From positions 4,560 through 68,559 of the forward strand of contig JAKABH010000002.1 of the NCBI GenBank assembly GCA_021801925.1: a DNA stretch of 64,000 nt, read 5' to 3'. The DNA is from Thermoplasmata archaeon. Its GTDB lineage: Archaea; Thermoplasmatota; Thermoplasmata; Lutacidiplasmatales; UBA184. The notes below the pieces were generated by a model that searched no databases, was not told the DNA's origin, and was given only the letters and a program-made list of their open reading frames with translations. The position numbers and the translations under genes were made by a program. How positions within the stretch are numbered: position 1 is the stretch's first letter; each line of letters starts with the position of its first letter. Below, piece after piece: positions 1,292-63,729 of the stretch.

Positions 1292-1298
1292 GGGGCCC

Positions 1299-3166: not shown

Positions 3167-3173
3167 TTTAATA
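3167..3173 (+). promoter_or_regulatory. TATA-like box (TTTAATA) upstream of trx
   Basis: The only AT-rich heptamer in a GC-rich spacer, about 38 nt upstream of ATG 3208, with GAGG in between. Confidence 0.35.
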
Positions 3174-3207
3174 GGCCGACCGGCTCCGGACCGGCGAGGC
3201 GGTCACG

Positions 3208-3525: not shown

Positions 3526-3626
3526 CTCTCCCGCCCCGGGGACGGGCACCGCGCCCCCGCGGGGGGGCCCGGCCGCATCGGGGCGCTGTGCACCGGCGCG
3601 CGCCCCGTCCCCGTTGAGGTGGCGGC

Positions 3627-6418: not shown

Positions 6419-6507
6419 GCGGGGGGGTACACTTAAGCGGAAGTGCTGAAAAGATGGGAATGGTCTGGACTGCGTGCCACGGTCTAGCATGGGTGGAGTG
6501 AAGTCTC

Positions 6508-7590
6508 GTGCGAACTCTGACCGAATCCGAAGCGCGGGTGATTGCCGTCATGCTCGCCGCCCGGCCGGACCGGGAACGCGAGCGCCTGCGGCAGGTGCAG
6601 GTACCCCGTTCGACCTACCATGCGATCCGCCGGCGCGCCTATACGGAGGCGTGGTTGCGCGATCGGTACATCCCGCACCCGGGCCCCCTCGGCCGCCCCT
6701 GGGTGACGTTCATCCTGCTCCGCCCGTTCGCGGACCGCTTCGAGGAGTTCGCCGCCGCCGCGGCGGCCGACCCCGGCACGGTCGGCCTGTGGACAGGCAC
6801 CCAGGTCGCCCTCGCGATCCTGTTCCAGCCGAAGCCGACCGACCGCGCGAAGTGGGCGAACCGCATCGAGCGGGAGCGGCTCGGCGCCCATCCGCTGCTG
6901 CTCACCGTACGGGCCGATGCGCCCTCGGTCCCGGTCTACTTCGACTTCGAGGGCCTCTGGTGCCATCTGGTCGGGTTGCCCGGCACCCTGGCCTATCCCC
7001 ACGGGCTCGGAGGGGAGCTGGCGCCGACCCCCGGTGAATCCGATCCCCGGCTGACTCCGCACCGGCGGTGGGCGATCTCCGAACTCGTCCATCGGCCGTT
7101 CGTCGGATCCGCGGACGGGCGGGGCGATCATCTCGTCGGCCCGTTCGGACTTCCGTTCACCCAGCGCCGGATGCTCGCGAAGGGATGGGTCGACCACCGC
7201 ACGCTGCTCGACCCGGCCCGCCTGCCCCCGTACCAGGGTCGGAGCCCGGATCAGGTCGTGCTGCTGTCGGGCACGCCGCGGGCCGGGGCCCGCCCCGAGC
7301 AGCTGTTCGCGTTGCTGACGCGGGAGTGCCGGGTCTTCCCGTTCCTGCTGGTCGTCGGCGACGACCGGTGGCTCGTCGGGGCCCTCGGATCGGCCTCGCC
7401 CCCGCCGGAGCTGGGGAGCGATCGACGGCCGGTGCTCGGCACCTTCCGGGAGTTCCTCGAAGGAATCGAGATCGTCCAGGAACCGGCGGCCCGCTTTGTC
7501 GCCCGGGTCGATCACCGGTACGACCGCCTCCTCCCTCCGGCCCGCCCGCCGGCGGCCCCGACCCGGGAGCCCGCCGACCCGACCGACTGA
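6508..7590 (+). CDS. Hypothetical protein with an apparent internal duplication
   Basis: GTG start and protein-like composition. The two halves share a pattern (see finding). No family recognised. Confidence 0.45.
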   Translation: MRTLTESEARVIAVMLAARPDRERERLRQVQVPRSTYHAIRRRAYTEAWLRDRYIPHPGPLGRPWVTFILLRPFADRFEEFAAAAAADPGTVGLWTGTQVALAILFQPKPTDRAKWANRIERERLGAHPLLLTVRADAPSVPVYFDFEGLWCHLVGLPGTLAYPHGLGGELAPTPGESDPRLTPHRRWAISELVHRPFVGSADGRGDHLVGPFGLPFTQRRMLAKGWVDHRTLLDPARLPPYQGRSPDQVVLLSGTPRAGARPEQLFALLTRECRVFPFLLVVGDDRWLVGALGSASPPPELGSDRRPVLGTFREFLEGIEIVQEPAARFVARVDHRYDRLLPPARPPAAPTREPADPTD

Positions 7591-7699
7591 GTCCGGCCGC
7601 GGGTCCACCCCTCGGGCCGCCCGACGACCGGGCCCGCCCTCCTGCGCCGAAGGTTCCGGCAGTGAGAAGCCATATGTGGCCCGGGGTGCGATTCCTGTG

Positions 7700-7774
7700 G
7701 GGCGCGTAGCCTAGCTTGGATAGGGCACCGGGTTCCTAACCCGGCGGTCGAGGGTTCAAATCCCTCCGCGCCCG
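7700..7774 (+). tRNA. tRNA-Arg (anticodon CCU)
   Basis: Hand-folded cloverleaf. Acceptor GGGCGCG/CGCGCCC, D stem GCCT/GGGC, anticodon stem CCGGG/CCCGG with loop TTCCTAA, T arm GAGGG-TTCAAAT-CCCTC. 75 nt, no encoded CCA. Confidence 0.9.
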
Positions 7775-7949
7775 TCGCTCGCCAGGGGAATCCGGAGGGC
7801 GCGCGGGAACCGGGAGCCGGACGTCACCGGCGACCCCTCCGCCCAGGTCGGCGGTCACCGGGCGGGCTACCGGCAAGCGAGCGGGCGGGGATCGCACCGC
7901 CCGATCGGGCCCGATCCGCCGGTTCCCCCCGGGTGGGCCGACGGATCGG

Positions 7950-8351
7950 TCAGCCGGTCGTGACGAGATAGATCGCGAGCCCCACCCCGATGGCGACCAT
8001 GGTGAGGGTGAGCGCCCACTCGAGGGCGGTATGGACCCGATACTCTCCCGCCTCCAGCTCCTGCCGCGCGGTGCGGAACCGGGCGAATCCGAGCAGGAGC
8101 ACCGCCGCGCCCGCGAGGACGAGCAGCACTCCGGTCGCCTCGGAAAGGGGGGCTGGGGCCGCCGTTCCCACCGTCCCGCCCGAGAGTTCGCGAAGCAGCA
8201 GGCCGAATTTCGCGACCACGAAGCCGAACGCCATGATCGTGATCGCCGTCCGTACCCATGCCAGAAACGTACGCTCGTTGGCAAGATGGTCCGTCGGCGA
8301 GGCGCGATGGACCGGCCCGGCCGCGGCGTCGGCATGGTCCGTTCCGCTCAT
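7950..8351 (-). CDS. DUF202 (YidH-like) membrane protein
   Basis: LANERTFLAWVRT signature followed by three hydrophobic helices. The 267-aa ORF is trimmed to ATG 8351. Confidence 0.75.
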   Translation of the reverse strand: MSGTDHADAAAGPVHRASPTDHLANERTFLAWVRTAITIMAFGFVVAKFGLLLRELSGGTVGTAAPAPLSEATGVLLVLAGAAVLLLGFARFRTARQELEAGEYRVHTALEWALTLTMVAIGVGLAIYLVTTG

Positions 8352-8868
8352 CGCCTCCCCACGGACACGCGGGCCGTTGATGAAGGACGCGGTCGAGCCG
8401 CGGACCCGCCGCCGGCGTCGCCACCGGGGGCCGGAACACCCCGCCTCATTTTCGCCTCGGGCGGGCTCGAGCCCAATCCCGCGCGGGTTCGGAACGTGGC
8501 GGTCGCGGTCCGGATGCCGGCCGCCCCGCAGGCGACGGGCCCCTGCCTCCGGTCGAGTTCGAAGGCGACTCGGCCTCGGACCCGGCGATCCGTCGGACCC
8601 CGGCGCCGCTGTCGATCCGGACCCCCTCCAGCGAGAGCCGTCCCCCCCTGGCGAGATCTCGGGCACTTCCCCGGGGGGGAGACGGGGAGCAGAGTCGAGC
8701 CCATTTGCCGAGCCCGCGCGGGCGCCTAAACATGGCGTGTCGGTTCCCGACATTCTGACCCCACTTCTTCCCGAAATTATGGCCCCCTTTCTACCTCGAA
8801 CGGGGGTGGCGCCTCATGACGGACATGTATCCCCCCAATCCTCGGTCACTTCGGTGGGAGGGCCCCCA

Positions 8869-9615
8869 GTGTACGACCGAGTGAAGCGCCACGAGATTCT
8901 CGTTCTGCGTCGAGCGGGCCTGACCCTGCGAGAAGTCGCACGGAAGGCCGGTGTGGGTGTGAGGACGGTCCAACGCATCCTCCAGCAGGGTGACCTCGAC
9001 CCTCCGTCACGACACGCTGTCGGCCGGCCTCCGGTCGCGGTGGCCTTCGAAGAAGAGGCCCGACGGATCCTGGCGACCGACGGGGAACTACCGACCGTCG
9101 AGGTCCTCCGTCGGCTACGGCAGAACGGCTACTCGGGAGGCAAGAACCCAGTCTACCAACTGGTCCGTCGCCTGCGAGCTACGGTGACCCCTCCGTTGGT
9201 GAGGTTCGAGGGCGTCGCCGGAGAGTTCTGTCAGTGCGACTTCGGCCACGTACGGGTCCACTACGACGACGGCACCGAGGAGCTGCTCCACTTCTTTGCC
9301 GCTCGGCTGAAGTGGTCGCGCTGGGTGCAGGTCGAACTCGTTCCCAACGAACAGGTGGAGGCGCTGGCCCGGTCGCTGCTCGCCGCCTTCGCCTCCTTCG
9401 GGGGCGTGCCCCTCGTGGGCGTCTTCGATAACCCGAAGACGGTCGTGATCTCGCGCCAGGGCGGCCAGATCCAGTGGAACGACACCTTCGCCCAAGTTGC
9501 CCTCGACTACCGCTTCGCCCCCGAGCTCTGTACGCCGCGCCGCGGCAACCAGAAGGGGAGTGTCGAAAATCGGGTGGGCTTTGTGAAGAACGGGTTCTTC
9601 AAAGTCCGCCGGTAA
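8869..9615 (+). pseudogene. IS21-family transposase IstA, C-terminally truncated, no istB
   Basis: N-terminal HTH (GLTLREVARKAGVGVRTVQRIL). First two DDE acidic motifs are present (CDFGHV, VFDNPKT), but the ORF stops at FFKVRR before the third catalytic residue. No IstB ATPase gene follows. Confidence 0.8.
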
Positions 9616-9637
9616 CTGTTCACGGAGTTGAGGGGCT

Positions 9638-9661
9638 GAACGCGCGCGCACGCGCGCGTTC
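9638..9661. repeat. 24-nt alternating-CG palindrome (11-bp arms, 2-nt centre)
   Basis: GAACGCGCGCG-CA-CGCGCGCGTTC, verified by reverse-complementing. It lies at the junction between the truncated IS21 gene and the IS110 unit. Confidence 0.9.
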
Positions 9662-9848
9662 GACTTCGGGTTGACCGAAAGTACTGCTATGTACCCTCCG
9701 CTCGCGAGTTGAGCGAAGGGTCGGGATCGGGGACGTCACATGGTTGGATCTCCGAGATTGGCTTGCCCGCTCCCGCCTACTGCTATTTGCGCCCGAAGCG
9801 CACGAAGACAATTGCGGCGAGGGGCCCCAGGGCGGTGTCCTGCATTCT

Positions 9849-10907
9849 TTAGTCGTGCGACGGTCGGGGAGGCCTCGCAGTACTTGCACTGCAGCTCGGC
9901 CGCTCTGGAGCGTGAGGGAGATAGGGAGTTCCCCGTTTCAGGATTGCGTAGACCACTCTGAGGAGGGCATGTGCGGTGTCGATCGCGCCGCGCTTCGCCC
10001 CCTTCCGGCGACCACTCCGCCGGCCTACCCGGGCGATGTAGCTCGTTCGTGACTCTCTCCGGTGGGACCAGCCAGCCTCCACAAGGACCCAGCGAAGAAG
10101 GTGATTGCAGTCCGCCTTGAGGGAGCCGTGGTAGGAGTGGTTCGCTGACTGGTGGGTCGAGGGGCACAGCCCGCAGTAGGAGCTCAGTTCGTCGAACGAG
10201 CGAAAGCGCTCAATGGGACAGAGGAAGGCCACGAGGATGACCGCAGTGAGCTCTCCAATCCCCGGGATGGTCTCCAGCAGTTGAGCCTCTTCTGATCTCA
10301 GGTAGGCGGCGTGGATCGCCTTGTCGAGCTCCTTAGTGGCCCCCGAGAGGTCCTCCAGCCGGTCCAACCCCCGATCGACCTCGGGGATTCCCAGCTCTCG
10401 GAGGCTCTCTCGACGCCGCGCCCGCATCAGAATGCCCTCCTCATAATCGACGCCTTTCCCGAACAGCTGAGCGTAGGTGTGGTTGGCCACTGACTTGTTC
10501 TGCTTCCGGTAGAACACCCTCTCCCGAACCAATCGACGCAGCGCGCGAGTATCGAGGTCGGGAACGAAGGCTGTGGGCAGCGCGTTCAATCGGAGTAAGG
10601 TCGCCAGCGCTTCGGAGTCCACTTTGTCAGACTTCAGACTCGCATCGGCGATCAAACGGGTCCGAAAGGGGTGGGAGAGCACGACCTGGGCGCCCGCCGA
10701 TACGGCCGCATCGTGGTAGTGCTCCCACACCGAACACGCTTCGAGCGCGACCCGCTTGGATCCCGGAAGCGTGCGAAGGTAGTCCACCAACTCCTGATCG
10801 GAGGACCCGAGCTTCACTTGACTCAACCTCCGGCCAGAGGCGTCGAGGGCTGTGGCTACGACGAGGTCCTTGTGCACATCCAATCCGACGAAGGTCTCTG
10901 CTTCCAT
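9849..10907 (-). CDS. IS110-family transposase (DEDD recombinase)
   Basis: N-terminal FVGLDVHKD (DEDD_Tnp_IS110 signature), central IPGIGELTA (Transposase_20 helix-hairpin-helix). Start at MEAETF (10907) or at 10961. Confidence 0.9.
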   Translation of the reverse strand: MEAETFVGLDVHKDLVVATALDASGRRLSQVKLGSSDQELVDYLRTLPGSKRVALEACSVWEHYHDAAVSAGAQVVLSHPFRTRLIADASLKSDKVDSEALATLLRLNALPTAFVPDLDTRALRRLVRERVFYRKQNKSVANHTYAQLFGKGVDYEEGILMRARRRESLRELGIPEVDRGLDRLEDLSGATKELDKAIHAAYLRSEEAQLLETIPGIGELTAVILVAFLCPIERFRSFDELSSYCGLCPSTHQSANHSYHGSLKADCNHLLRWVLVEAGWSHRRESRTSYIARVGRRSGRRKGAKRGAIDTAHALLRVVYAILKRGTPYLPHAPERPSCSASTARPPRPSHD

Positions 10908-11011
10908 GGGGCGTCTCCGAGGGGAAGGGAGGAGACGCCCCGCTTGGGTCTTCCGTGGCATCGAGCGGAGGGTAACATGTCTTCTTTCCGGAGTTCGCCT
11001 ATGCCCTCGCC

Positions 11012-12127
11012 ATGGTGGTCCGGGTCCGCCCGATCACGGATGACGAGGGCAATCGACTCCGACGGATCGTTCGCCACGGGCAGAACGCCATCGAGGTGAA
11101 GCGCGCCCAGGTCATTCTCTGCTCCGCCCAGGGGTTCACCCCTCCGAAGATCGGCCTCTCCGTCCTCATGAGCGAGGACTACGTCCGACGGCTGATCCAC
11201 GAGTTCAACCTCCATGGGTTCTCGATGCTCAAGCCCCACTGGGGACCGGGACCGAAGGCCAAGTTCTCGGACGAGCAGCGCGATGCGCTGGTGGCGCTCG
11301 CCAGCAGCCGTCCGAAGGACCTTGGGCTGCCGTTCACCCAGTGGAGCCTCTCCCGCCTCCGGAAGGCGGCCATCGATCGCGGAGTGGTCCCGTCGATCAG
11401 CGAGGAGTGGCTGCGGGTCATCCTCCTCGAGGCCGACCTCAGTCACCAGTCGTTGCGGACGTGGAAGAAGAGCACCGACCCGGAGCGGGAGCTGAAGAAG
11501 GAATACATCGAGAAGCTCACCCGGCAGCCGCACAACCCCCCGGTCGTACTGAGCGCGGACGAGATCGGACCGATCCAGCTGGTGCCGCAGGGCGGCGCGG
11601 GGTGGTTCCCGCGCAAGACGCCGGGGCGGATCCCGGCCGAGTACCCTCGGGAGTTCGGGACGGCCTACTACTTCCTGATGTTGAACGTCTACCACCAGAC
11701 CCTCTCGGGGCAGGTCTATCGAACCAAGCACTCCACGAACTGGCAGGAGTTCGTGGCGGAGGAGCGGGCGAAGTATCCCCTCGATCAGCCGGTCTACCTG
11801 ATCCAGGACGGGCTTTCCACGCACTGGACCCCGGCGGTGCGCCAGTGGGCGCGGGAGCACGAGGTGATCCTCGTGCCGACGGCGACCCACGCGAGCTGGA
11901 TGAACCCCGTGGAGACCCATGCGAAGGGGATCGAGGAGCTGGCGCTCCCCGGGACGGAGTTCACCTCGGTGGGGGAGCTCGGGGAGGCGCTGGACCGAGC
12001 GGTCGAGTACCGGAACGAGGAGCGGAAGGCGCGAGGGAAGAGGTTCCGGGACACGGTACGCGCCGATCGACGGCACGCGTCCAAGGTGCCCCTCTGGCTG
12101 CGGGCTACCGTACCCGATGTTTCCTGA
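11012..12127 (+). CDS. IS630-family transposase (apparently intact)
   Basis: HTH/winged-helix N-terminus, DDE_3-type core (VLSADEIGP ... YLIQDGLSTH ... SWMNPVE). 371 aa, uninterrupted. Confidence 0.88.
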   Translation: MVVRVRPITDDEGNRLRRIVRHGQNAIEVKRAQVILCSAQGFTPPKIGLSVLMSEDYVRRLIHEFNLHGFSMLKPHWGPGPKAKFSDEQRDALVALASSRPKDLGLPFTQWSLSRLRKAAIDRGVVPSISEEWLRVILLEADLSHQSLRTWKKSTDPERELKKEYIEKLTRQPHNPPVVLSADEIGPIQLVPQGGAGWFPRKTPGRIPAEYPREFGTAYYFLMLNVYHQTLSGQVYRTKHSTNWQEFVAEERAKYPLDQPVYLIQDGLSTHWTPAVRQWAREHEVILVPTATHASWMNPVETHAKGIEELALPGTEFTSVGELGEALDRAVEYRNEERKARGKRFRDTVRADRRHASKVPLWLRATVPDVS

Positions 12128-12161
12128 TGGCCGCTCCACTAGCTCCACTGAAATCGTCCTC

Positions 12162-12389
12162 TCAGCTAAGATGTACTGCCGAGCCGCTCAGACGACGCTG
12201 AACCATGACCGAGACGAGGACGCCTACCGCCCCGAATGCAATCAAGCCCGGCCCGAGCAGCGACGCCGGAAACAGCAACAGGGCCAGCAGCCCTGCGGTG
12301 TCGGCAACTACGACCCAGATGACCCCAATGACTCTACAAGTTTTCCACCATGCACTCGTCTTGCCGAGGTTCCGGGGCAAAGGATTCAT
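12162..12389 (-). CDS. Possible small two-TM membrane protein
   Basis: Two hydrophobic stretches (VIGVIWVVVADTAGLLALLLF, LIAFGAVGVLVSVMV) in the AT-richer spacer between two IS. No homology recognised. Confidence 0.3.
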   Translation of the reverse strand: MNPLPRNLGKTSAWWKTCRVIGVIWVVVADTAGLLALLLFPASLLGPGLIAFGAVGVLVSVMVQRRLSGSAVHLS

Positions 12390-12556
12390 CCCTCCCTCAT
12401 GAAGCTCACTTCAGTCGGAGTTGGATGCTCAATCAGAACCCGTAAGGGGCGCCGCCACACCACAGACCCCATGCGAAGTAGACTGTCCAACTCCAGCAGT
12501 ATATCCACCAGCAACTCCCCAAGCTAATCGAATCGCCTAGAATCGTAAAACGGTTT

Positions 12557-13844
12557 GCTACTGAATAGGTGAGTTAGATATCCGGAAACCATTTCGGGCT
12601 CGGGCGTGGAGCTCGCGGCCGTCGGGGCCAAGTATGCCTCCCTCGCCCCGGAACTCACCGAGAGGTCCCGTCGGTACTGGGCGGCGACGGAGGCGCTCTC
12701 CCTTGGCCATGGAGGGATCGGTCTCGTCGCGCGGGCCGCCGGTCTCTCTCGCTCTACGATCTCCCGAGGGCTCCGGAAGGTCCGGTCCGGGGAGCGGCTG
12801 GAGCCCGGGCGCATCCGATGACCCGGCGGGGGACGGACGCCCACCGCCCGGAAGGACGCGAAACTGGTGGCGGACCTGGAGGCGCTCGTTGAGCCCACCG
12901 ACGCGGGCCGCCCCCAGTCTCGGGTGCGGTGGACCTCGCGGAGCACCCGGCGCCTGGCCCGAGAGTTGGAAACCCTCGGGCACAACGTCAGTTCCCATCT
13001 GGTCGCGGATCTGCTCCATGCCGCTGGCTACAGCCTCCAGTTGAACCAGAAGACCCGCGAGGGGACCACCCATCCGGACCGTGATGCCCAGTTCCGGTAC
13101 CTGAATGCCGAGGTGGTCCGCCACCAGCGCCGTCACCAGCCGGTGGTCTCGGTGGACACGAAGATGAAGGAGCTGGTGGGGGACTTCAAGAACGGCGGAC
13201 GCGAGTGGCGGCCATGGGGCAAGCCCGCGCCGGTTCGGGTCCACGACTTCCTCATTCCCCAGAAGGGGATGGCGATCCCCTACGGAGTGTACGACCTGAA
13301 CCGTAACGAGGGGTGGGTGAGTGTCGGGAGCGACCACGACACGGCGACGTTCCCGGTGCGCGCGATCCGACGGTGGTGGGAGGTAATGGGCCGCCCCTCC
13401 TACCCCCACGCGACCTCGCTGCTCATCACGGCGGACTGCGGAGGCAGCAACGCGGCGAGGGTTCGGCTCTGGACGTGGGAATTCCAGCAGTTCGCCGATC
13501 GGACGGGATTGACGCTCACGGTGTGCCACTTTCCTCCGGGGACGGGCAAATGGATTCGAATCGAGCACCACCTGTTCTCCCACATCGCCATGAAATGGCG
13601 AGGGGAACCCCTCGTGAGCCTAGCGGTCATCGTCAGTCTGATCGGGGCCACTACCTCGACCGCCGGACTTCGAGTCCGATCGGAGTTCGACAAAGGGCGG
13701 TATCCCGATGGGGTCGAGGTGTCCCATGAGCAGATGGCAAGGGTCCTCCTCGAACCCCACGAGTTCCATGGCGACAGGAACTACACTGTCCGACCCCACC
13801 GGGCTCGGGCCAAATCAGTCAGCTATTCAGTAGCGATGCCTTAG
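12557..13844 (+). mobile_element. ISAzo13-family insertion sequence
   Basis: Perfect 12-bp terminal inverted repeats, GCTACTGAATAG (12557-12568) and CTATTCAGTAGC (13823-13834), bracket the transposase reading frame. The ORF stop lies 8 nt beyond the right repeat. Confidence 0.75.
12606..13844 (+). pseudogene. ISAzo13-family transposase interrupted by one in-frame TGA
   Basis: ORFs 12606..12821 and 12867..13844 are in the same frame. Reading through TGA 12819-12821 gives ...GRIR*PGGGRTPTARKDAKLVADLEALVEP..., continuous with the family pattern. DDE core present (VSVDTK, ITADCGGSN, IEHHLFS). Confidence 0.85.
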
Positions 13845-15036
13845 GGGGATGGCCGTCGGGGCCCCCGATGGGTGGGAAAGGGACGCGGTCCCGGCCGCGA
13901 TCGGCAGGCGCCACCCGCGAGGCTCTGGCCGCCGCGGCCCGCCGCCTCCCGCCCGGGCACAGCGGCCCACAGCCAACGAGCTACCCGATCTTCCGGTCGG
14001 CCCGCACCCCTCCACCGTTCGTCCGACGCCGGCAACGGACCCTCGGATCCCTGGGGTCGTTGGCCGGTGAGTGGTCGCACTCGGGCGGGGCCCCCCCCGG
14101 TGGCGCGCGAACGGCGGGGTCGGCCGGGAGAAGCTCTCGTGGGCTGCCTCGGGGAGAAATTTCGACCGGGGCGCCTGCGATAGCCGCGCGGGCCCTCCAA
14201 TCGAGCGCCCGAGGTTCACGGGCGCGGAACGGAACACGGGCTCGGATGCGCCGAGCGTCGCCGAGCGGGCGCCCGCCCTGCCCACGCGGATCTTGGGGCC
14301 GTAGCGCTCGCGCCAGGATCTCGATCGGCTGCGAGATCGCCCCCGCGGGTCGACCCCGGCCCAGCGATTCAGAAGGCAACGCGACTCGTACTCGGCCGAA
14401 AGTACTCCGCTGGCTTCTCCCTCCGGCGATGTCGAACCCAGCCGACCACGTGCCGTCCGCTCCCCCCGCGCCGGCCCGCAAGGTCTGCTATCTGAGCCGT
14501 CGGCGGGGATGGACCGACCCGGCGAGCCCCCATCGCCCGGTCTCGGAGGTCAACCTCCTCGCCGTCTACCAGGGGCATGCGATGTGGACGCTGCAGACGA
14601 CGTGGGCCTGGGCGTTCGGCACGATGATCCCCCGGGAGATCGAACGGGCCTACGTGAACGCGAGCGCCCGGGTGCCGATTTCGGAAGGGGAGGTCAGCCT
14701 GCTTCGGCTGGTCGCGGAACGTCTCGGCGTTGAACTGCGGGTCGTCGACTGACCGCCCGGCCCCGCGCCCGTCCGTACCGGGTCCACCCCCGGGCTCCCC
14801 CCGTCCGTCCCTCGCCAGTCTCGGGCCATCGCCGGCGCTCCGTCAGATGCCGGGCCCTACCCCCGTCGCACGGAGCCGTCCGGGGGTGACCGACGGCGTC
14901 TCGATCGCCGGTCCATCCGTCCGAGTGGGGGGGCGCCGGCCCCCCGGGGGCGCGACCTACGCCTTCGACGTCCGTACGGGGGGCCGCAGTTTGGACCTGC
15001 TGGTTTAGCCCGCCGAGCCTTGGGAGGCCGGATGCC

Positions 15037-56446: not shown

Positions 56447-56562
56447 GTCGGAGCCGGGAGGCGGCCGGTTCCTTATCCGTTGCCGTTCCCGCCCGACCCG
56501 CCGAGGTTCGCCACCCTCGTCTCCGTCCGACTCCCCCGCCGACCGGAGCGGCCCAGGGGAGG

Positions 56563-56648
56563 CGCTGAGGGGGAGATTTGAACTCCCGCGACGGAAACCG
56601 TCACCAGATCTCGAATCTGGCGCCTTGGCCGAGCTAGGCTACCTCAGC
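56563..56648 (-). tRNA. tRNA-Ser (anticodon CGA), class II with long variable arm
   Basis: Hand-folded. Acceptor GCTGAGG/CCTCAGC, D stem GCCT/AGGC, anticodon stem CCAGA/TCTGG with loop TTCGAGA, variable-arm stem GACGG/CCGTC, T arm GGGAG-TTCAAAT-CTCCC. 86 nt. Confidence 0.9.
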
Positions 56649-56849: not shown

Positions 56850-57888
56850 ATGGGCCGATGGGCACAGCGCCATCGGGGTGCCGCCACCCTCGAAGAACGT
56901 CGATTGACGGGCCTCGCGCTCCTGCACTCCGGCCACTCGCAGGCCGACGTCGCTCGCCGCCTCGGAGTTACTCCCGTAGCGGTGTGTCACTGGAAGAGTG
57001 CCCTCGACGAAGGCGCCCCGCGGCGCTGCGCGCCATCCCTCGGCCCGGCCGGCCCCCGCTGGTGTCGAAGGACCACCAAGCCGCTCTCCCCGAGATGCTC
57101 GCGAAGGGAGCGCTCACCTACGGGTTCTCCACCGACCTCTGGACGAACCCACGCATCGTGAAGGTCGCCGAGGCCCAGTGGGGAGTTCGGTACTCCGAGA
57201 CAGCGATGTGGCGGATGCTCAAGCGCCACGGACTCTCCTGGCAGCGGCCTCGGAGGCAGGCCCGAGAGAAGGACCTCCGGGCCGTCTACAACTGGCGCCG
57301 TCGCTCCTGGCCTCGCTCTAAAAAAAACCCCGACACCGAAGAGCCGTAGTGGTCTTCGTGGACGAGAGTGGGTTCTCTCTCATCCCCTATGTCGCGAAGA
57401 CCTGGGCCCCCGTTGGCCAAACCCCGGTGCAGATCCACCAAGGACTGTGTCCGAAGTTCTCGGCGATCAGCGGCGTGACTCCCCCATGGAAGCTCTACAT
57501 CCAGGTCCACAAGGACACGATCGCCACCGACCAGCCTGTGGAGTTCCTCCAGCATCTCTTGCGACACATTCGCCGGCGACCCATCATGGTCTTCTGGGAC
57601 GGAGGTCGTCCCCACCACTCTGACGAGACTCGCGCCTTCCTCCGAGCCCACCCTCGGATCGAGGCGCAGCGGTTTCCGGGCTACAGCCCCGAGCTCAACC
57701 CCGATGAGTAGGTCTGGAGGCACCTGAAGAACCACGAACTCGCCAGCTACGCTCCGCACGACGTGAAGGAACTGAGCCGGGAACTCCGGCGTGCGGTCGT
57801 TCGAATGCGGGTCCGGCCCAAGCTGCTCTGTTCGTTCGTCGCGGCGACTCACCTCTACGATTCAGCACCTGACGACGGTGCGGGATGA
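56850..57888 (+). pseudogene. IS630-family transposase, disrupted (one indel, one A8-run frame change, one in-frame TAG)
   Basis: The HTH (frame of 56820) joins the frame of 56858 near 57015-57030 (...LDEG|PAALRAIPRPGRPPL). The frame changes again at A8 57320-57327 into VVFVDESGF. TAG at 57709-57711 lies inside ...SPELNPDE*VWRHLKN. Confidence 0.8.
57320..57327 (+). repeat. A8 homopolymer (slippery run) inside the IS630 remnant
   Basis: The only long homopolymer I saw in the window. A -1 slip here joins ...WPRSKKK to PRHRRAVVVFVDESGF. Confidence 0.85.
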
Positions 57889-58388
57889 GACGAACGGAGG
57901 ATTCTCCTCGGTAAGTGTTAAGCTATTTCGTCCGGCATCAGTAACTCGGTCCGGGCCGCCGCCCGGCCATCCGCGAGGTGACTCCGAGCTCTTGGAGAAG
58001 GTCTGGGGGCTACTGGAGGAACGTCACCTTGACTGGTCGCAAATCGCCCAGAACCGCCACGTCCCGGCAAGTAGCTGCCGAAAGTGGGTCTCCTACGCAG
58101 CTCGGGCTAAGGCGGTTACAGCCAACGGCCCGGTGACCAGGGCCTCCCCGAAGGGAGCCTGAAGACTGACCGCGGCGCCTCAATGGCGAAGGCTATTTGC
58201 CGCGGCCGTTGGGCCGGCCACCCCCCTACTGCCTAGACCCTCAGGAAGGCGGTCCGAGCGCGTGGAGAAACACGGCGGAGCCCGTCAAGGGGGTCGATTT
58301 GGGAGAAGCCAAACTTCTCAGATGAAGCGTGTTACTTCGAACTACACGAGCGACACTATCAAGTAGCAAAGCATCCGTGGCATCCCGC

Positions 58389-58712
58389 ATGAAGGGTGTC
58401 CTCTCTGTCCTGGGTAAGAAGAGGGCTCTGGACGTCTTGGACTTCCTTGAGTCCGAACCGCGGGGCGCACGATTCATCGACGTCCAACGATGGGCGGTGA
58501 ACGGGGTTCCATCGGTCACGACAGGCCTACTCAAGGACCTCAGGCAGTGCGGCGCAGTCGTCCGCGATGGCTCCGGGGACCTGCCCAGATACCGGATCAC
58601 CGACGCTGGAAAGGAGGCACGAACACATCTACACCAAGCCCTCGCCGCGCTGCATGGTGCGCGAGACAAGCGCCAGCCTCGTCAGGATTTGAGGAGAAGA
58701 ATGGGAGGGTGA
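58389..58712 (+). CDS. Small winged-helix DNA-binding protein
   Basis: LGKKRALDVLDFLESEPRGARFIDVQR...LKDLRQCGAVVRD...RYRITDAG follows a wHTH (HxlR/MarR-like) pattern. Trimmed to ATG 58389. Confidence 0.6.
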   Translation: MKGVLSVLGKKRALDVLDFLESEPRGARFIDVQRWAVNGVPSVTTGLLKDLRQCGAVVRDGSGDLPRYRITDAGKEARTHLHQALAALHGARDKRQPRQDLRRRMGG

Positions 58713-59494
58713 ACTGCGTGAAGGACCAGTACTTCGGTGACGTGAACGATTATCGCAAGTTCGGGCTTCTAAGGGGGTTGACCAGTGAGAGAGACCTTCG
58801 GCTGTCTATTTGCTGGGCACTGACCCGCTCAGATGGGCGGACTGACGGGTCCAAAACTCAGTACCTCGAGAACCCGAGCATCTGGAGGAGATTCGATCCC
58901 GAGCTCTTTGCCTTCCTTCGGCAACAGGTGGTCGATCGCGGCGACCGCCGAGTGGGTGCCATCGAAGGCACGCGAGTGCTTGGAGACTGCAACTTTTTCA
59001 GCGAGACCCTCCCGCGAGAGGAAGCGGCTCGAGACGGCTACTTCGAGAGACTTTGCGACCTTGCCGCCCGCACCGATCTCGTGTTCTTCGACCCAGACAA
59101 TGGCCTAGGTGTCAAGTCGACACCGAGAGGATGCCCGAACTCTGAGAAGTACGTGTACCCGTCGGAACTGGCGTCCGTCTTCTCACTGGGACCATCGATT
59201 CTCCTCTACCAACATTTCCCGAGGAGGCCACGAACCCAGTTCACCCAATGGTTGGCACGCTCACTTTGTGAGTTGCTTGGAAGCGAACGGGCGGTGGCCT
59301 TCATTACACCCCACGTGCTCTTCCTCCTCGTGCCGAACCGTCGTCACTGGGCCGCACTGAGGGCGGGCGCCGAGCGGGTCGCTGGGAGATGGAGCGGCCA
59401 GATTGGAGTGGTCCACCTCAGTCGACTTGGGAATCTCCGCCCGGTCCCATTCGATGCCTTTGGGCCCCGCGAAGCCGCCCCCGTTGCGGCGTGA
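58709..59494 (+). CDS. Hypothetical protein with GDVNDYRKFGLL and FFDPDNG motifs
   Basis: GTG 58709 overlaps the wHTH stop (GTGA). 261 aa, protein-like composition. No family recognised with confidence. Confidence 0.6.
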   Translation: MNCVKDQYFGDVNDYRKFGLLRGLTSERDLRLSICWALTRSDGRTDGSKTQYLENPSIWRRFDPELFAFLRQQVVDRGDRRVGAIEGTRVLGDCNFFSETLPREEAARDGYFERLCDLAARTDLVFFDPDNGLGVKSTPRGCPNSEKYVYPSELASVFSLGPSILLYQHFPRRPRTQFTQWLARSLCELLGSERAVAFITPHVLFLLVPNRRHWAALRAGAERVAGRWSGQIGVVHLSRLGNLRPVPFDAFGPREAAPVAA

Positions 59495-59505
59495 GATCGC
59501 CGGGC

Positions 59506-60189
59506 CTATGCGCTCCAGAGCGGTCGAACGAGGCTTGATGGCTGTTTCCACCCTGCGCAGACTCTAACCTCCGCGGACGCCGCAACCGATAGCACGTTTT
59601 CCACCCCCCGGTCCACCGCCACCTCGACGACCTGTCCGGATTCAGGGAAGCGATCTATTGCCTGGAACGTGTCCGCCCCCCTCGGTGGCGGATCCTCCCC
59701 GTTAGCGCGCCTGAAAGTGCTGCCGGAGTTCATCGAGGTGAGCGCGATCCGGGCGGAGCACTGATCGAGCAGCAACCGCGTGTTCACCTTCAGGACGACG
59801 TGTTCAAAACCTCTGTAGAACTTCGCTCCGAGAAGCATCTCGAGCCGAGACCACTCCGCCCAGAAGAACACCTTGGCATTGATCAAGCGATACCAGTCCT
59901 CCACAGACATCCCCTGCTCCAGCAGGGGGCGGAGCTCGGCCGGGGGCATGGGTTGCTGGTCCCGGATCCAAGCAGGGGGAAGGCCTGTCTTCTCGATCTT
60001 GACCATCGCTGGCCTCCACCTGGACTCGATCAGCTCCCTGCGCCCTCCAGTGTATCCGTAGAGGTCAAGCAATGCGGAAGTGCTGAGGAGCCCCCTGGCC
60101 TGTATCCCGGGCCAGTTCGGGACCTCGGCCATATGGTAGAGAGTCGGGTAGCGCTCTATCAGCACCCCAATCCTCAAGCTCCCTCCCAA
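59506..60189 (-). CDS. Putative ADP-ribosyltransferase-fold protein (DarT/DUF4433- or DUF7002-like)
   Basis: N-terminal LYHMAEVPNWPGIQARGLLSTSALLDL and C-terminal QVVEVAVDRGV resemble the H...E elements of DarT-type ARTs as I remember them. Start is TTG 60189 (16-nt overlap) or GTG 60165. Confidence 0.55.
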   Translation of the reverse strand: MGGSLRIGVLIERYPTLYHMAEVPNWPGIQARGLLSTSALLDLYGYTGGRRELIESRWRPAMVKIEKTGLPPAWIRDQQPMPPAELRPLLEQGMSVEDWYRLINAKVFFWAEWSRLEMLLGAKFYRGFEHVVLKVNTRLLLDQCSARIALTSMNSGSTFRRANGEDPPPRGADTFQAIDRFPESGQVVEVAVDRGVENVLSVAASAEVRVCAGWKQPSSLVRPLWSA

Positions 60190-61784
60190 GCTCTCCGGTC
60201 GATGACGCTGCGGTGGTTGAACCCGACTGCCACCATTGTCACGGGAACTCCCGCGACGCGGCCCACCTCGTCGATGAACTGTATGGTCTCCTTGGAGAGT
60301 TGGTCGAAGCGGACGGCCCTCCTATTTCCCGAGGTGATGTAGTCAGCAAACGTCAGCGCGATGTCGGTCGCGCCGTTCAGGAGCGAGGCTCGATGCAGGA
60401 GAGCCCAATCGAACTCGCCGACCCTCCTGCGGCGATTCGTGGTCGAAGTTCGCTCGTGCTGTCTGAGTTCATCGACCGGAATTCCAGACCGCCTGGAGAT
60501 CTCGGCCCAGCCGATCTCGTTCAGTGGACCTGACGTGCCTCCCTCGGGACTCTGCACTCGGATAGGGTAGGTTCGGACGACCATCAGAACGCGACGTACC
60601 CACTTCGGTGGTATGCCAGCCTCGGCAAGACACCCTCCTGCCGTCGTGTCGCGGCTCGTGACGAACGGAAACTCCCCGTGGTAGATGCTCAGCCCGGTCC
60701 CCTGGGTCCCTTCAAGGAGGACGCGCCTGCCGTTGAGGTAGGCATCCTCGAGCTGTGTGAAGGCGTCTCCTAGAAAGGGCTTGAGCTCCGGGACCGCCCC
60801 AGCCAGACGGGTCGTGGAGTTTCGCCCCATTATTCGGCGCGCGGTCGCAGCGCCGGTGCCGCTCCCCGTCGAGCCGATATCTTTCTTCAGCTTCAGCTCG
60901 TCATGGATGTCCTTGGGGTCGATTACCATCGCATTGCGGTCGATGACGAGCCGTTGGGCGTCCACCTGACAGTCGGCGATCTCCTGGAGCAGCTTTGGGA
61001 TGTTGAGGACGGCCCCCGGGCCAATCAGCAGCTTCGCTAGGGGGTTGTACCTTGTCCCAGAAGGAAGCTGGTGGTGCGTGTACGGTGGATTGCCGAAGAC
61101 CTTGTGCCCCGCGTTTGGCCCCCCCACGCGGACCAACAGGTCGTACTCGCGCGCGATGTAGGATGCGATTTGGCCCTTTCCCTCGCTACCGAATTGTCCG
61201 CCGACGACGACGTCCACGTACCCTAGCCCCTTGTGGGGGTGCGCCCGGATCAGGCTGGCGGCGCGAGCGGCGACATCCGCCTCGGTACAACGGTCCGTGT
61301 CGATGACCGCGTCCGCGAGGTCCCGGAGCGTCTCCACTTGGGCCTCCGTGGGATCGGCCTTCGCCTGGGCATATGTAATGGCCATGTCCTTCGATTGCTG
61401 ACGGCGCTTAGCAAAACGCATGGCGAGGACCTCAGGAGGGGCCGTCAGGTGGATGTGTACGACTTTGGACCCAAACGCCTCCCGGAGGGCCCTCACTTGG
61501 TTCTCTATCCGCACGGCGTCCACCACGATGCACGTGCCTCTGTCCTCTTCGCCCAACCATCGGTAGAGCTCCTGCACCACCCATCTTCCCCCGGTCGACT
61601 TGTCCAGGTCCGCGCCTCGTTTCTGGAGCAGCCTTCGGTCGGAGATTGGCACCCGCATGATCCGCTTCGTTAGAGACTCCTTAGTCCTGAACACCGACAT
61701 CTGGTAGCGGTCCTCCAGGCGGCGGGCAAGCGTCGACTTGCCGGAGTAAATCTGTCCCGATAGGGCGATGATTCGGTCAGCCAC
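60174..61784 (-). CDS. Fusion protein: N-terminal P-loop kinase-like domain + C-terminal adenylosuccinate synthetase (PurA)-like domain
   Basis: Kinase P-loop ALSGQIYSGKSTLA (res 7-20). AdSS motifs GGQFGSEGKGQ, GGPNAGH, GSTGSGTGAATARR, LLEGTQGTGLSIYHGEFPFVTSRDTTAGG, TSTTNRRRRVGEFD. GTG start overlaps the upstream stop by 8 nt. Confidence 0.85.
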   Translation of the reverse strand: MADRIIALSGQIYSGKSTLARRLEDRYQMSVFRTKESLTKRIMRVPISDRRLLQKRGADLDKSTGGRWVVQELYRWLGEEDRGTCIVVDAVRIENQVRALREAFGSKVVHIHLTAPPEVLAMRFAKRRQQSKDMAITYAQAKADPTEAQVETLRDLADAVIDTDRCTEADVAARAASLIRAHPHKGLGYVDVVVGGQFGSEGKGQIASYIAREYDLLVRVGGPNAGHKVFGNPPYTHHQLPSGTRYNPLAKLLIGPGAVLNIPKLLQEIADCQVDAQRLVIDRNAMVIDPKDIHDELKLKKDIGSTGSGTGAATARRIMGRNSTTRLAGAVPELKPFLGDAFTQLEDAYLNGRRVLLEGTQGTGLSIYHGEFPFVTSRDTTAGGCLAEAGIPPKWVRRVLMVVRTYPIRVQSPEGGTSGPLNEIGWAEISRRSGIPVDELRQHERTSTTNRRRRVGEFDWALLHRASLLNGATDIALTFADYITSGNRRAVRFDQLSKETIQFIDEVGRVAGVPVTMVAVGFNHRSVIDRRAWEGA

Positions 61785-63159
61785 CGGACCAGTCCTCCGA
61801 GAGGCAGCTCTGGCGCTCCCCCTTCGCAGACGTTGCGCGAGAAGTCCTGGCCGGCGGCGTGTACACCGTCACCGGGACACCCCGGCTTGATAGATGCTCG
61901 TCAATCAGCTCGGAGATGACGCTCCAGTTTCCCCCAGCCATACCCGCCCCGATGCGCGGCATGTGAATGCTCGCTCCCGCCCGGAGCGCCTCATCGCGAA
62001 CCGTTGCGAGGCAGGCGTTGAGGGCGGCGTACCTGATTCTGGGTTTGTCGCTGGGACCGTACCCATGCTGGGCCACCATGCTCGCGATGGATAGTCCCTC
62101 AGAGACTTGGGCGATCCGGGTCCTCCCGAGCGACAGGTTGCGGTGACCCTCGCTCGCCCAGCGCCGAAAGTCTTCCTGCGCTTGAGGGAACTTCCCTCTG
62201 ACCGCCTTCGAGAACGCCCCTCCCCAGTTCGCGGTCTTGTCGTTCACGACCTGGGCGACTATTTTTGGGCCTGCCCCGCGGGGTTGCAGGGCGTCCCCAC
62301 GGAGCTCTAGAGTGGTGCTGGGCCGGTCTTTCGAGGGCACCGTCATGCGGCAGAGGCCCAACACTCTGGGAAGGGCTTTCCCGGGATAGGGGGGAAGGCC
62401 CACGCACTCCCAATAGAGAGAGGGTACCACTCCTTTGGAGGGCTCGCGCCCTTTGGCGGTGCAACCGACGGCAATGCACTGGGAGAACACCGAGCCCTCT
62501 AGGAGTGCCCCAGGGCCGAACGGAGGTGCCCCCGCACGGGAAGTGACCACGTAGTCTGCCCGGAAGGTTCGCTCTCCGACCCCTTCGTTCACTCGAGAAG
62601 CCACGGCCACGGCGCACGGGTAGCGGGCCGAGCGAACGAGGCGTAGGGCCGCCGCCTCTACCGAGACCTGGCACGCCTCCTGGATCTTGAGAAGGGAGTC
62701 GATGGTGGGCGGAGCGGCGGGATCCACCGCGAAACCGGTGGGCATGAGGATCTCCGACGCCGCTATGTTGCACAGCATCTCGAGTTCCCAGTCGTCGCCC
62801 CGGGGGTTCGCCTCTCTGTTGCGAACCGTCTGGAGATGGTCGTCGAACAGCGTGTGCGCTATCTCATGGGCGAGAGAGAAGCGGATCCTGTTCCGGGGCC
62901 GGTTCGGATTGAACTCGATCTCTGGATGCTGGCCTCGGGGCACAATCTTCGCGTCCAGGACATCCTCCTTGGGGACCACGGAGATGCCGAGGAGCTCCGC
63001 GAGGCGGAACGGGTCGAACGGAGGCCCCTCCCACCCCCTTTGTACTGCCTCAAGTACGACGTCTCTGGCCCTCCGAGTCACGGCCACGACAGGGTCTCGA
63101 CCCTCGGCCAGCCTCTTCACGCTGGGGTTGGTCCAAACAACGGTAGTTTGTGGCGCCAT
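61777..63159 (-). CDS. Fusion protein: ImmA/IrrE-type Zn metallopeptidase + middle region + C-terminal Macro domain
   Basis: FSLAHEIAHTLF (HExxH, 62854-62868) with downstream ELEMLCNIAASEILMP. Macro motifs IVAQVVNDKTANWGGAFSKAV and IHMPRIGAGMAGGNW (about 61855-62307). Confidence 0.85.
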   Translation of the reverse strand: MAPQTTVVWTNPSVKRLAEGRDPVVAVTRRARDVVLEAVQRGWEGPPFDPFRLAELLGISVVPKEDVLDAKIVPRGQHPEIEFNPNRPRNRIRFSLAHEIAHTLFDDHLQTVRNREANPRGDDWELEMLCNIAASEILMPTGFAVDPAAPPTIDSLLKIQEACQVSVEAAALRLVRSARYPCAVAVASRVNEGVGERTFRADYVVTSRAGAPPFGPGALLEGSVFSQCIAVGCTAKGREPSKGVVPSLYWECVGLPPYPGKALPRVLGLCRMTVPSKDRPSTTLELRGDALQPRGAGPKIVAQVVNDKTANWGGAFSKAVRGKFPQAQEDFRRWASEGHRNLSLGRTRIAQVSEGLSIASMVAQHGYGPSDKPRIRYAALNACLATVRDEALRAGASIHMPRIGAGMAGGNWSVISELIDEHLSSRGVPVTVYTPPARTSRATSAKGERQSCLSEDWSGG

Positions 63160-63528: not shown

Positions 63529-63729
63529 TTATCGCCGTCCGCGGCGGCTTCCGCTCCCTGAGAAGAAGTTGATAACGATTACCACCGCTGTCAGCCCGAA
63601 GACCGCAGCGACGACTTCCACGATGTAGCCTGTGAACTCAAGGAGGACTGACGGGAGGAAGAACGCCACGAAAATGAAACCTACAATCAATACGAGAAGC
63701 ACCGTGACGATTCCGTCCCACTTGTTCAT
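63529..63729 (-). CDS. Possible small two-TM membrane protein (66 aa)
   Basis: IVTVLLVLIVGFIFVAFFL and VVAAVFGLTAVVIVINFF, with a basic C-terminus. AT-richer codon usage like the surrounding island. Confidence 0.4.
   Translation of the reverse strand: MNKWDGIVTVLLVLIVGFIFVAFFLPSVLLEFTGYIVEVVAAVFGLTAVVIVINFFSGSGSRRGRR

Follow-up and report, generated by a model that had tools for sequence, protein, structure and literature searches.

A recurrent gene cassette of a Thermoplasmata archaeon encoding predicted ADP-ribosyltransferase, macrodomain and PurZ-like proteins

The three genes and their predicted products

We have analysed a 64,000-nucleotide stretch of DNA from a Thermoplasmata archaeon (contig JAKABH010000002.1, positions 4,560 to 68,559; hereafter the window), towards the end of which three overlapping genes on the minus strand encode an M78 metallopeptidase fused to a macrodomain (gene 1), a P-loop kinase-like domain fused to a domain resembling adenylosuccinate synthetase (AdSS; gene 2) and a DUF7002 protein resembling ADP-ribosyltransferases (ARTs; gene 3). 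The open reading frames (ORFs) called in the window lie at the coordinates given in a first-pass annotation of this DNA (Table 1), with the overlaps that it reported, 8 nt between genes 1 and 2 (61777–61784) and 16 nt between genes 2 and 3 (60174–60189, from the TTG start), and all the motifs that it quoted for the three proteins are present. The public annotation of the contig (NCBI GCA_027377325.1) contains the same three genes but starts gene 3 12 nt later, giving 223 residues from 60177 and a 4-nt TTGA overlap with gene 2. The same gene order recurs in more than 100 independent loci, from many bacterial phyla and two archaeal lineages, and the linkage of the trio is therefore beyond chance.

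The C-terminal domain of gene 2 matches the AdSS family, as had been claimed, on a scaffold of the short archaeal type, and its best match in the PDB is the Pyrococcus horikoshii enzyme (4e-51, residues 192–531). It scores below every NCBIfam cut-off: 276 bits against 368 for archaeal AdSS, 206 against 396 for TIGR00184 and 207.4 against 300 for PurZ (NF038379). We aligned 120 relatives of gene 2 with P. horikoshii AdSS and E. coli PurA, the numbering of the latter being self-consistent. The catalytic Asp13 of PurA is replaced by serine in 117 of 117 relatives; in the window protein this residue is Ser200, in a P-loop reading G-S200-E-G-K-G-Q205. Lys18 is replaced by Gln and Thr128 by Ser (E. 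coli PurA numbering), and the counterparts of Asn38, His41, Thr129, Gln224, Thr239, Arg303, Arg305 and Asp333 are retained. The column of Arg143' in the MAFFT alignment holds Gln, Gly or Lys, but since the invariant Arg316 and Arg317 lie three to four residues away on the same helix we do not take this as a loss of 5'-phosphate binding.

The same serine is present in the PurZ-type gp48 of Arthrobacter phage Preamble (GGQFGSEAKGH). According to a 2026 study, position 13 is Asp in 99% of PurA sequences, whereas each of 147 phage PurZ/PurZ0 sequences (100%) has Ser there; the study considers the serine diagnostic of PurZ/PurZ0, a few basal archaeal sequences also carrying Ser or Gly (PMC12884076). 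Because this pattern at position 13 is shared by the relatives of gene 2, the phage enzyme and the published set, we describe gene 2 as a cellular PurZ-like enzyme joined to a kinase. The earlier assignment thus stands at the level of the family and becomes specifically PurZ-like: the exchange of Asp13 for Ser is likely to shift the substrate from inosine monophosphate (IMP) to a guanine nucleotide, and the retained guanine-specifying aspartate (Asp481, the counterpart of Asp333) suggests that GTP is the donor. A housekeeping PurA was considered and rejected on account of the scores below all equivalog cut-offs, the loss of Asp13, the constant fusion to a kinase domain (in 80 of 80 metagenomic relatives) and the presence of a canonical PurA (GDEGKGK) 2.5 kb from the PurZ-like gene in one related locus, L074. 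In that alphaproteobacterial locus (5829–11687) the PurZ-like gene is kinase-less, encodes 367 residues with the P-loop GGQYGSEGKGK, against GAQWGDEGKGK in the canonical PurA, overlaps a membrane-anchored dUTPase/DCD-like gene and is divergent from DUF7002.

The N-terminal domain of gene 2 has the Walker A motif G10-QIYSGKS17. It matches a deoxynucleoside monophosphate (dNMP) kinase family in PHROG (3e-7), a weak likeness to dNMP and CMP kinases, as well as positions 156–326 of the 630-position PADLOC model of the antiphage dCTP deaminase (dCTPase; 1e-6).

The third gene scores 184 bits against the DUF7002 profile, for which the cut-off is 27, and holds the motifs LYHMAE, GLLSTS and VVEVAV. 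Among its homologues His19, Phe108-Phe109-Trp110 and Glu189 are invariant or nearly so, as are four arginines, Arg51, Arg59, Arg76 and Arg170, which are invariant. An AlphaFold2 model calculated with 33 homologues has a mean predicted local distance difference test score (pLDDT) of 96.5, and a Foldseek search of the PDB with this model retrieved structures that nearly all have ART folds. E. coli DarT1 was the top match (8baq, E 9e-6), and cholera toxin A1, DarTG complexes, pertussis toxin S1 and Tpt1 followed. From the model we are confident that gene 3 has the ART fold proposed in the first-pass annotation and that DarT1 is its nearest solved structure. A survey of Legionella ARTs (BMC Genomics 2025; PMC12522546) describes, in its section on Lmac_3114, an ART-like family with Hxx, FFW and xxE motifs, with DarT and Tpt1/PTS_2-RNA among the closest relatives, with AdSS in about 60% of gene neighbourhoods and with bacteria as the only hosts reported there. 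The shared motifs and the AdSS neighbour make it almost certain that this family is DUF7002.

The M78 domain of gene 1 carries His98-Glu99-x-x-His102 and Glu136 (in E136-ILMP), and the HExxH and E..MP motifs are kept at 90% or more across the family. Its best PADLOC model is CapP (1.3e-21), with RmrA of the Rosmer system at 5e-9, and the PDB matches include IrrE (3dte, 8slm). The conserved middle region of the protein (residues 189–274) has no match in Pfam or among PDB sequences. The macrodomain that follows is closest to SCO6735 (5e3b, 3.3e-30) and Bt_1257 (2afc/2fg1, 3e-27), with ALC1 (7enn, 4e-10) and TARG1 (3e-3) further away. Asn306, Gln364 and the phosphate loop Gly404-x-Gly406 are conserved across 116 relatives and correspond to Asn27, Gln85, Gly126 and Gly128 of SCO6735, whereas Lys34 and Lys89, which position DNA in SCO6735, are not conserved in the gene 1 family. 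Experimentally, SCO6735 strips DarT-made ADP-ribose from thymidine in DNA and rescues cells from DarT, and Asn27, Gln85 and Gly128 are essential for this removal. The similarity and the essential residues place the domain, as judged from sequence, in the SCO6735/Bt_1257 subclass and support its membership of the ALC1-like class that includes DarG, TARG1 and SCO6735; this agrees with the role of ADP-ribose eraser that it had been given.

Island setting, distribution and accessory genes

The first-pass annotation had placed the genes in a lower-GC island with a tRNA and an insertion sequence (IS) remnant. The GC profile, ARAGORN and Pfam bear this out. The GC fraction is 0.61–0.65 from about 57 kb to the end of the window, against 0.69–0.79 across 14–57 kb. 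A tRNA-Ser gene stands at the boundary with its 5' end pointing toward the island and with genes for TFIIB and SAMP2 just past it, and remnants of an IS630-family transposase follow. The two ORFs of the latter, an HTH ORF and a truncated DDE_3 ORF of 120 residues, meet at 57349, and the element is either a copy in decay or a gene that depends on a frameshift. No attachment-type direct repeats were found around the island within 56–64 kb, and the island extends past the end of the window. The low GC content, the tRNA and the IS remnant support the view that the cassette is a mobile island copy and count for a setting of mobility and conflict. The nearest homologues with a named source are from Thermoplasmata metagenome-assembled genomes.

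Table 1. Features of the cassette and its surroundings. Positions are those of the window.
Feature	Position	Strand	Basis
tRNA-Ser(cga), at the high-GC/low-GC boundary	56561-56648	-	ARAGORN
IS630-family transposase remnant, two ORFs (HTH_33/HTH_32, then truncated DDE_3)	56858-57711	+	Pfam 1.2e-16, 3.6e-22
Small winged-helix (IclR-like helix-turn-helix, HTH) gene, directly upstream of the RlmJ-like gene	58329-58712	+	Pfam HTH_IclR 1.2e-3, below cut-off
RlmJ-like Rossmann-fold gene, convergent to the operon	58709-59494 (longest ORF from 58490)	+	AlphaFold2/Foldseek; conserved core from about 58709
Gene 3, DUF7002/Lmac_3114-family DarT-like ART (predicted), 227 residues from TTG	59506-60189	-	Pfam PF22531 3e-54
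Gene 2, kinase and PurZ-like fusion, 536 residues, GTG start	60174-61784	-	ORF call
Gene 2, PurZ-like AdSS domain, residues 187-536 and stop codon	60174-61226	-	Pfam PF00709 (Adenylsucc_synt) 5.7e-55
Gene 2, P-loop nucleotide-kinase-like domain, residues 1-186	61227-61784	-	Pfam AAA_18 5e-9, AAA_33 3e-5
Gene 1, M78 metallopeptidase, conserved middle region and macrodomain, 460 residues	61777-63159	-	ORF call; 116 full-length relatives with conserved motifs
Gene 1, macrodomain, residues 275-434, SCO6735/Bt_1257 subclass of ALC1-like	61858-62337	-	PDB sequence matches
Gene 1, middle region, residues 189-274	62338-62595	-	Conservation profile; motifs QC.A.G.TAKG, EC.G.PPYPG...PRV
Gene 1, M78 (ImmA/IrrE/CapP-type) domain, residues 45-188	62596-63027	-	Pfam PF06114 1.1e-10

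Two further features of the window were noted. The only other dip in GC content (0.63–0.67 over 9–14 kb) is a transposase cluster, part of a second lower-GC patch beside tRNA-Arg(cct) at 7700–14800 with rve-type, IS110, IS630-like and ISAzo13-like DDE transposase genes; it is probably an insertion hotspot without relation to the cassette. Upstream of gene 1, at a distance of 370 nt and on the same strand, lies an ORF for a hydrophobic, two-helix membrane-like protein of 66 residues (63529–63729, minus strand), which the public record likewise annotates and which matches no known family; the 370-nt upstream region offers this ORF and nothing else.

A scan of about 185,000 species-representative genomes found relatives of DUF7002 in 401, and there are hundreds of metagenomic loci besides. 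Among the best 80 DUF7002 loci, to which our counts for genomes refer, about 29 contain all three genes with order and strand conserved, in hosts from the Chloroflexota, Actinomycetota, Alpha- and Gammaproteobacteria, Acidobacteriota, Verrucomicrobiota, Binatia, Thermoplasmata and Nitrososphaeria; seven have the kinase–PurZ-like gene and DUF7002 alone, two of these with an extra kinase. On the metagenomic side the M78–macrodomain gene lies upstream of the kinase–PurZ-like gene in 61 of the 61 loci with room for it, and DUF7002 was found downstream by tblastn in 62 of 68, at least two of the six misses being a divergent DUF7002. The question raised earlier of whether the genes are linked elsewhere is thereby answered: the kinase–PurZ-like gene essentially never occurs without the ART, and the ART can occur alone. 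The high identity across the domains of life indicates horizontal transfer. In two loci a divergent DUF7002 subfamily (LFHLT/VFFWPG) is followed by the gene for a 769-residue protein containing a classical AAA ATPase domain (L160, 8088–10397; L166, 2786–4996), which may be a further accessory component.

Fourteen plasmids carry DUF7002, mostly with an annotated 'adenylosuccinate synthetase', and one of them has transposases and an adjoining TOPRIM and UvrD pair, which by product names alone is read as Gabija-like. The 134 neighbouring ORFs of 17 genomic loci comprise integrases, Mu and IS1595 transposases, type I and III restriction–modification methyltransferases, MADS, HNH and AbiEii-like genes, and also many housekeeping genes. 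In the closest relative, which is 75% identical (L084), the cassette stands beside an integrase and tRNA-Leu. A 1181-residue DEAD/ResIII helicase gene with a 300-residue partner (418–4862), a few kilobases upstream of the cassette in that locus, may be a second system of the defence type within this tRNA-Leu/integrase island. Viral sequences contribute little. Only four IMG/VR contigs carry DUF7002; three of these (L170–L172) carry the whole system and may be true proviruses or misclassified islands. No phage in INPHARED carries the kinase–PurZ fusion, the phages there holding unfused PurZ at about 34% identity, and a fold search of BFVD gave no significant match, the weak top viral match being an RNA 2'-phosphotransferase. 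On these grounds we rejected a phage origin of the cassette.

The first-pass annotation described a three-gene module. The trio does recur, but the cassette often exceeds three genes, with an RlmJ-like gene as fourth and, in related loci, a dUTPase/DCD-fold gene as fifth. The RlmJ-like protein has the motifs YFGD.ND..KY, FFDPDNG and YQH.PR and no sequence match in Pfam (methyltransferase families included), PADLOC or the PDB. Its AlphaFold2 model, built from cluster-representative homologues (pLDDT 91.6), matches the methyltransferase RlmJ (4blu, E 1.7e-4) with template-modelling (TM) scores of 0.42–0.44, and the catalytic DPPY of RlmJ is replaced by an invariant Asp128-Pro-Asp130-Asn-Gly132. 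The family comprises 2980 representative clusters. In about 27 loci its members adjoin the trio, in one of three arrangements: behind it on the same strand, convergent with it, or upstream of it. In three loci (L034, L115 and L150) the domain is fused to the N-terminus of the M78–macrodomain protein, which by the Rosetta-stone argument speaks for a functional tie between the RlmJ-like protein and the cassette. The C-terminal extensions of long RlmJ-like proteins contain no informative domains. The HTH and RlmJ-like pair follows the cassette in L084 too; the HTH gene was not found in bacterial loci.

A gene of about 300 codons with the dUTPase/DCD fold (Pfam DCD, 1e-10 to 1e-11) is the last gene of the operon in L055, L086, L096, L097 and L102 and is present also in L074 and L088 (5433–6359), and a MazG-like nucleoside triphosphate (NTP) pyrophosphatase gene lies upstream of the kinase–PurZ-like and DUF7002 genes in L016. 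Such genes are found in a minority of related cellular loci and are absent from the window. Variants with an extra stand-alone kinase and no macrodomain were seen in Xanthomonadales-like genomes and on a Burkholderia plasmid (L016, 5294–6333; L077, 5673–6308; L087, 2107–2619; L171, 5759–6295); L016 also has a PT-TG polymorphic-toxin gene upstream.

Relation to known systems

With DarTG the cassette shares an ART-fold enzyme and an ALC1-like macrodomain in one operon, and both are mobile and patchy in occurrence. DarT1 is the best solved relative of the one protein and SCO6735, a reverser of DarT marks on DNA, that of the other. However, the ART belongs to DUF7002, with FFW as motif II, and not to DarT/DUF4433; the macrodomain has an M78 protease as its fusion partner where DarG has a C-terminal toxin-binding domain; an obligatory gene for the kinase–PurZ-like protein lies between the ART and macrodomain genes; and versions lacking the macrodomain exist. 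The DarG model NF048014, with a cut-off of 250 bits, gives gene 1 just 21.6 bits, and only over residues 394–447; the PADLOC DarG model matches the same stretch at 4e-6.

The resemblance of gene 2 to PurZ and PurZ0 lies in the short archaeal-type scaffold, the replacement of both Asp13 and Thr128 by Ser and the residues kept at the aspartate and nucleotide sites. It differs in being cellular and kinase-fused, in keeping the guanine-specifying aspartate (Asp333 in E. coli), in falling below the NCBIfam cut-off for PurZ and in lying nearer by score to P. horikoshii PurA. The MazG-like and dUTPase-fold candidates of related cellular loci are comparable to MazZ and DutZ, the pyrophosphatases that supply PurZ in the phage Z-cluster, which belongs to the 2-aminoadenine (Z) pathway, whereas neither DatZ nor DpoZ was seen in the cassette loci, which have an ART and a macrodomain alongside. 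A P-loop kinase-like domain fused to a nucleotide-converting enzyme is reminiscent of the antiphage dCTP deaminase and dGTPase defences; unlike the dCTP deaminase, gene 2 has a PurZ-like ligase as its effector and is part of a multi-gene system, and the match between the two is weak (1e-6).

Proteases of the CapP, ImmA and IrrE type switch on mobile-element or defence genes upon DNA damage. The M78 metallopeptidase with its HExxH...E arrangement is common to gene 1, CapH–CapP of the cyclic oligonucleotide-based antiphage signalling system (CBASS), ImmR–ImmA, DdrO–IrrE and RmrA of Rosmer, with CapP as the best profile for gene 1, but in contrast to CapH–CapP and ImmR–ImmA there is no adjacent gene for an HTH substrate, and the protease shares its polypeptide with a macrodomain (in L034, L115 and L150 with the RlmJ-like domain as well). 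The fourth gene resembles RlmJ, the methyltransferase of m6A2030 in 23S rRNA, in its predicted fold, in the N-terminal GD..D..K and in a D-P-x-x on the equivalent strand. It differs in having DPDNG for DPPY, in TM scores of just 0.42–0.44 and in being a stand-alone, island-borne gene that is sometimes fused to the M78–macrodomain protein.

No model in PADLOC-DB v2.0.0 covers the trio, as the first-pass annotation had expected. The matches there are to single domains (CapP, RmrA, a fragment of DarG, the kinase part of dCTPase, and VakA), gene 3 and the RlmJ-like gene have none, and with matches at the level of domains alone we rejected identity with a catalogued defence system. Literature searches for DUF7002 by name, for AdSS with a macrodomain in antiphage defence and for PurZ with ADP-ribosylation yielded one relevant text, the Lmac_3114 section of PMC12522546. 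The family described there is alike in its Hxx, FFW and xxE motifs, in having DarT and Tpt1 as nearest relatives and in its AdSS neighbour. The hosts in that section are bacteria only, whereas DUF7002 as collected here extends to the Thermoplasmata and Nitrososphaeria. Its passages on the family do not mention an M78–macrodomain partner, the PurZ-type serine, kinase fusion as a rule or RlmJ- and DCD-like genes, and they propose metabolic regulation, not conflict. The earlier statement that no described system has this combination therefore has to be divided. The ART family and its association with AdSS are already known from the bioinformatic description in that section. By contrast, we found neither the complete gene architecture nor the PurZ signature in the searchable literature or in PADLOC v2, and no mention there of an occurrence in archaea or of a fourth and a fifth gene.

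Interpretation of the cassette

The evidence supports a self-contained cassette that moves horizontally, and at slightly less than even confidence we read it as an immune module of the toxin–antitoxin-like or abortive-infection kind that would combine reversible ADP-ribosylation with the conversion of guanine nucleotides. The folds, motifs and linkage are observations; what the enzymes act on, which way control runs and whether the module serves immunity are inferred from them. Gene 3 would act as a NAD+-dependent, DarT-like ART of the H-Y-E type (His19, FFW, Glu189) and would modify bases of nucleic acids. The SCO6735-type macrodomain of gene 1 would erase these marks and so protect the resting cell, a pairing suggested by the strict linkage and by the precedents of DarT/DarG and SCO6735. 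The M78 domain may make this protection depend on a signal of stress or infection, through cleavage of itself or of a partner. Gene 2 would take its phosphoryl group from GTP and join aspartate to a 2-amino-6-oxopurine nucleotide, (d)GMP, at the C6 position; the predicted product is N6-succino-2-amino-(d)AMP, to which Ser13 and the retained residues of the aspartate, IMP and guanine sites point. By analogy with the kinase-dCTP-deaminase and dGTPase defences, the (d)G pool could be drained or re-routed in the response, or alternatively gene 2 may supply a nucleotide used by the ART system. The RlmJ-like protein here, and the dUTPase/DCD-like and MazG or NUDIX proteins at other loci, would be accessory parts that modify nucleotides or bases.

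A number of observations weigh against this interpretation. In overall score against PDB entries the AdSS-like domain of gene 2 resembles archaeal PurA (177 bits) more than the solved PurZ and PurZ0 structures (102–114 bits). The likeness of gene 3 to DarT is at the level of the fold alone, with TM scores of 0.35–0.38 (0.35 for 8baq); neither Pfam DarT/DUF4433 nor the PADLOC DarT model matches it, Pfam returning DUF7002 alone, and the docking reported in the Lmac_3114 section of PMC12522546 placed NAD+ atypically. No HTH repressor of the CapH or ImmR type stands beside gene 1 in the window or in L001 and L084–L086; the sole HTH gene of the window is 3 kb away, is paired with the RlmJ-like gene and is not found in bacterial loci. 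DUF7002 is solitary, in ordinary chromosomal neighbourhoods, in about 40 of the 80 genome loci, with no conserved partner there (clustering of neighbours gave housekeeping genes and high-GC shadow ORFs), and versions on plasmids and in Xanthomonadales and Rhizobiales have no macrodomain. Since such solitary and macrodomain-less versions occur, the ART is either not obligatorily toxic or is controlled in some other way. The ART and macrodomain that the first-pass annotation had paired as writer and eraser are indeed linked, but for the same reason the macrodomain is doubtful as an obligate antidote. Many cassette neighbourhoods are plainly metabolic and not defence islands, our literature search found no experimental work on any component of the cassette, and the strict tie between the PurZ-like enzyme and the ART is left unexplained.

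Four other explanations were considered. The genes might form a purine-modification pathway that installs a modified purine (of the 2-aminoadenine type, N6-succinyl or ADP-ribosylated) in host DNA or RNA, the cellular equivalent or forerunner of the phage Z-cluster, possibly serving for self-marking, with the macrodomain and M78 domain in editing or regulation. The PurZ-type serine speaks for this, as do the accessory genes that mirror the Z-cluster (MazG-like in L016, compare MazZ; dUTPase/DCD-fold, compare DutZ), the solitary and apparently tolerated DUF7002 genes and the frequent linkage, at times fusion, of a protein predicted to fold like the N6-adenine methyltransferase RlmJ. We nevertheless consider it unlikely: a Z-specific polymerase and a dATPase homologue (DatZ) are missing from the loci, the Z-cluster-like accessory genes are confined to a minority of loci and do not occur in the window, the RlmJ-like protein has DPDNG and not DPPY, the combination of M78, macrodomain and ART is typical of conflict systems, and a patchy distribution on islands and plasmids sits poorly with a core role in genome chemistry. 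A further explanation is metabolic regulation, in which the ART would tune purine synthesis or NAD+ through the adjacent AdSS, or gene 2 would be a purA paralogue with unrelated neighbours. The first of these is the proposal of the Lmac_3114 section of PMC12522546, the sole paper that we found mentioning the association of ART and AdSS, and most substrate-site residues of AdSS are kept. With Asp13 replaced in 117 of 117 relatives, all NCBIfam PurA scores below cut-off, a canonical PurA coexisting in L074, an AdSS-like domain that is in every case kinase-fused and linked to DUF7002, and a cross-domain identity that implies horizontal transfer, it is highly improbable.

Macrodomains and Tpt1 are classically linked by the processing of ADP-ribose 1''-phosphate (Appr-1''-p), and this link invites a Tpt1-like chemistry in which the kinase phosphorylates a hydroxyl of a nucleotide or nucleic acid, DUF7002, in the manner of RNA 2'-phosphotransferase, either loads the phosphate so formed with ADP-ribose from NAD+ or takes it off, and the macrodomain deals with the resulting ADP-ribose-phosphate; the module would then serve to repair or damage RNA or nucleotides and not to ADP-ribosylate bases. 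Tpt1/KptA is among the fold matches of gene 3, the weak top viral match is likewise a 2'-phosphotransferase, the Lmac_3114 section of PMC12522546 counts PTS_2-RNA among the closest relatives, the four invariant arginines could bind phosphate, and a kinase domain is always there, with a second kinase in L016, L077, L087 and L171. The invariant Glu189 on the last core strand, however, belongs to the H-Y-E transferase signature and not to the HHh of Tpt1, Foldseek prefers DarT1 (9e-6) to Tpt1 (at least 0.2), the macrodomain is of the ALC1-like class that cleaves ADP-ribose from DNA rather than Poa1/MacroD, and the PurZ-like domain goes unexplained; we regard this explanation as decidedly unlikely. 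A pure addiction module, which would stabilize its mobile element and have no antiviral role, fits the island and plasmid locations, the DarTG-like logic of writer and eraser and the overlapping, co-translated genes. Yet addiction would not call for as much as five domains, three to five genes and a protease that responds to a signal, DarTG as the closest analogue defends against phage, and many copies are chromosomal and non-mobile, so that we hold simple addiction to be improbable.

The immune reading can also be taken further. A cellular PurZ-type enzyme in a protease-gated immune cassette could convert G nucleotides to N6-succino-2-aminopurine nucleotides, a precursor of Z, and the ART and macrodomain could write and erase ADP-ribose on G or Z bases or on the nucleotide. 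We think this extended form unlikely as it stands. If it were true, it would amount to immunity in which a non-canonical purine is made or marked when the need arises, a mechanism that is not described for any defence system, and the cellular PurZ-type enzyme would possibly be the long-sought non-viral source of phage PurZ.

The cassette is akin to the conflict systems built on ARTs and macrodomains, and there is a realistic chance that its PurZ-like chemistry makes it something new. Its genes make up a widespread system, present in both prokaryotic domains and absent from PADLOC v2. They provide the first cellular setting for a PurZ-type enzyme, which bears on the origin of the phage 2-aminoadenine pathway, and suggest a new way of manipulating the guanine-nucleotide pool in conflict. 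The DarT/DarG paradigm of reversible ADP-ribosylation of nucleic acids would be extended to a new, M78-gated pair of ART and macrodomain. Cultured carriers exist, among them Roseicella frigidaeris DB1506 and Roseomonas vinacea CCM 7468, and with the plasmids of rhizobia and Burkholderia they open these hypotheses to direct testing.

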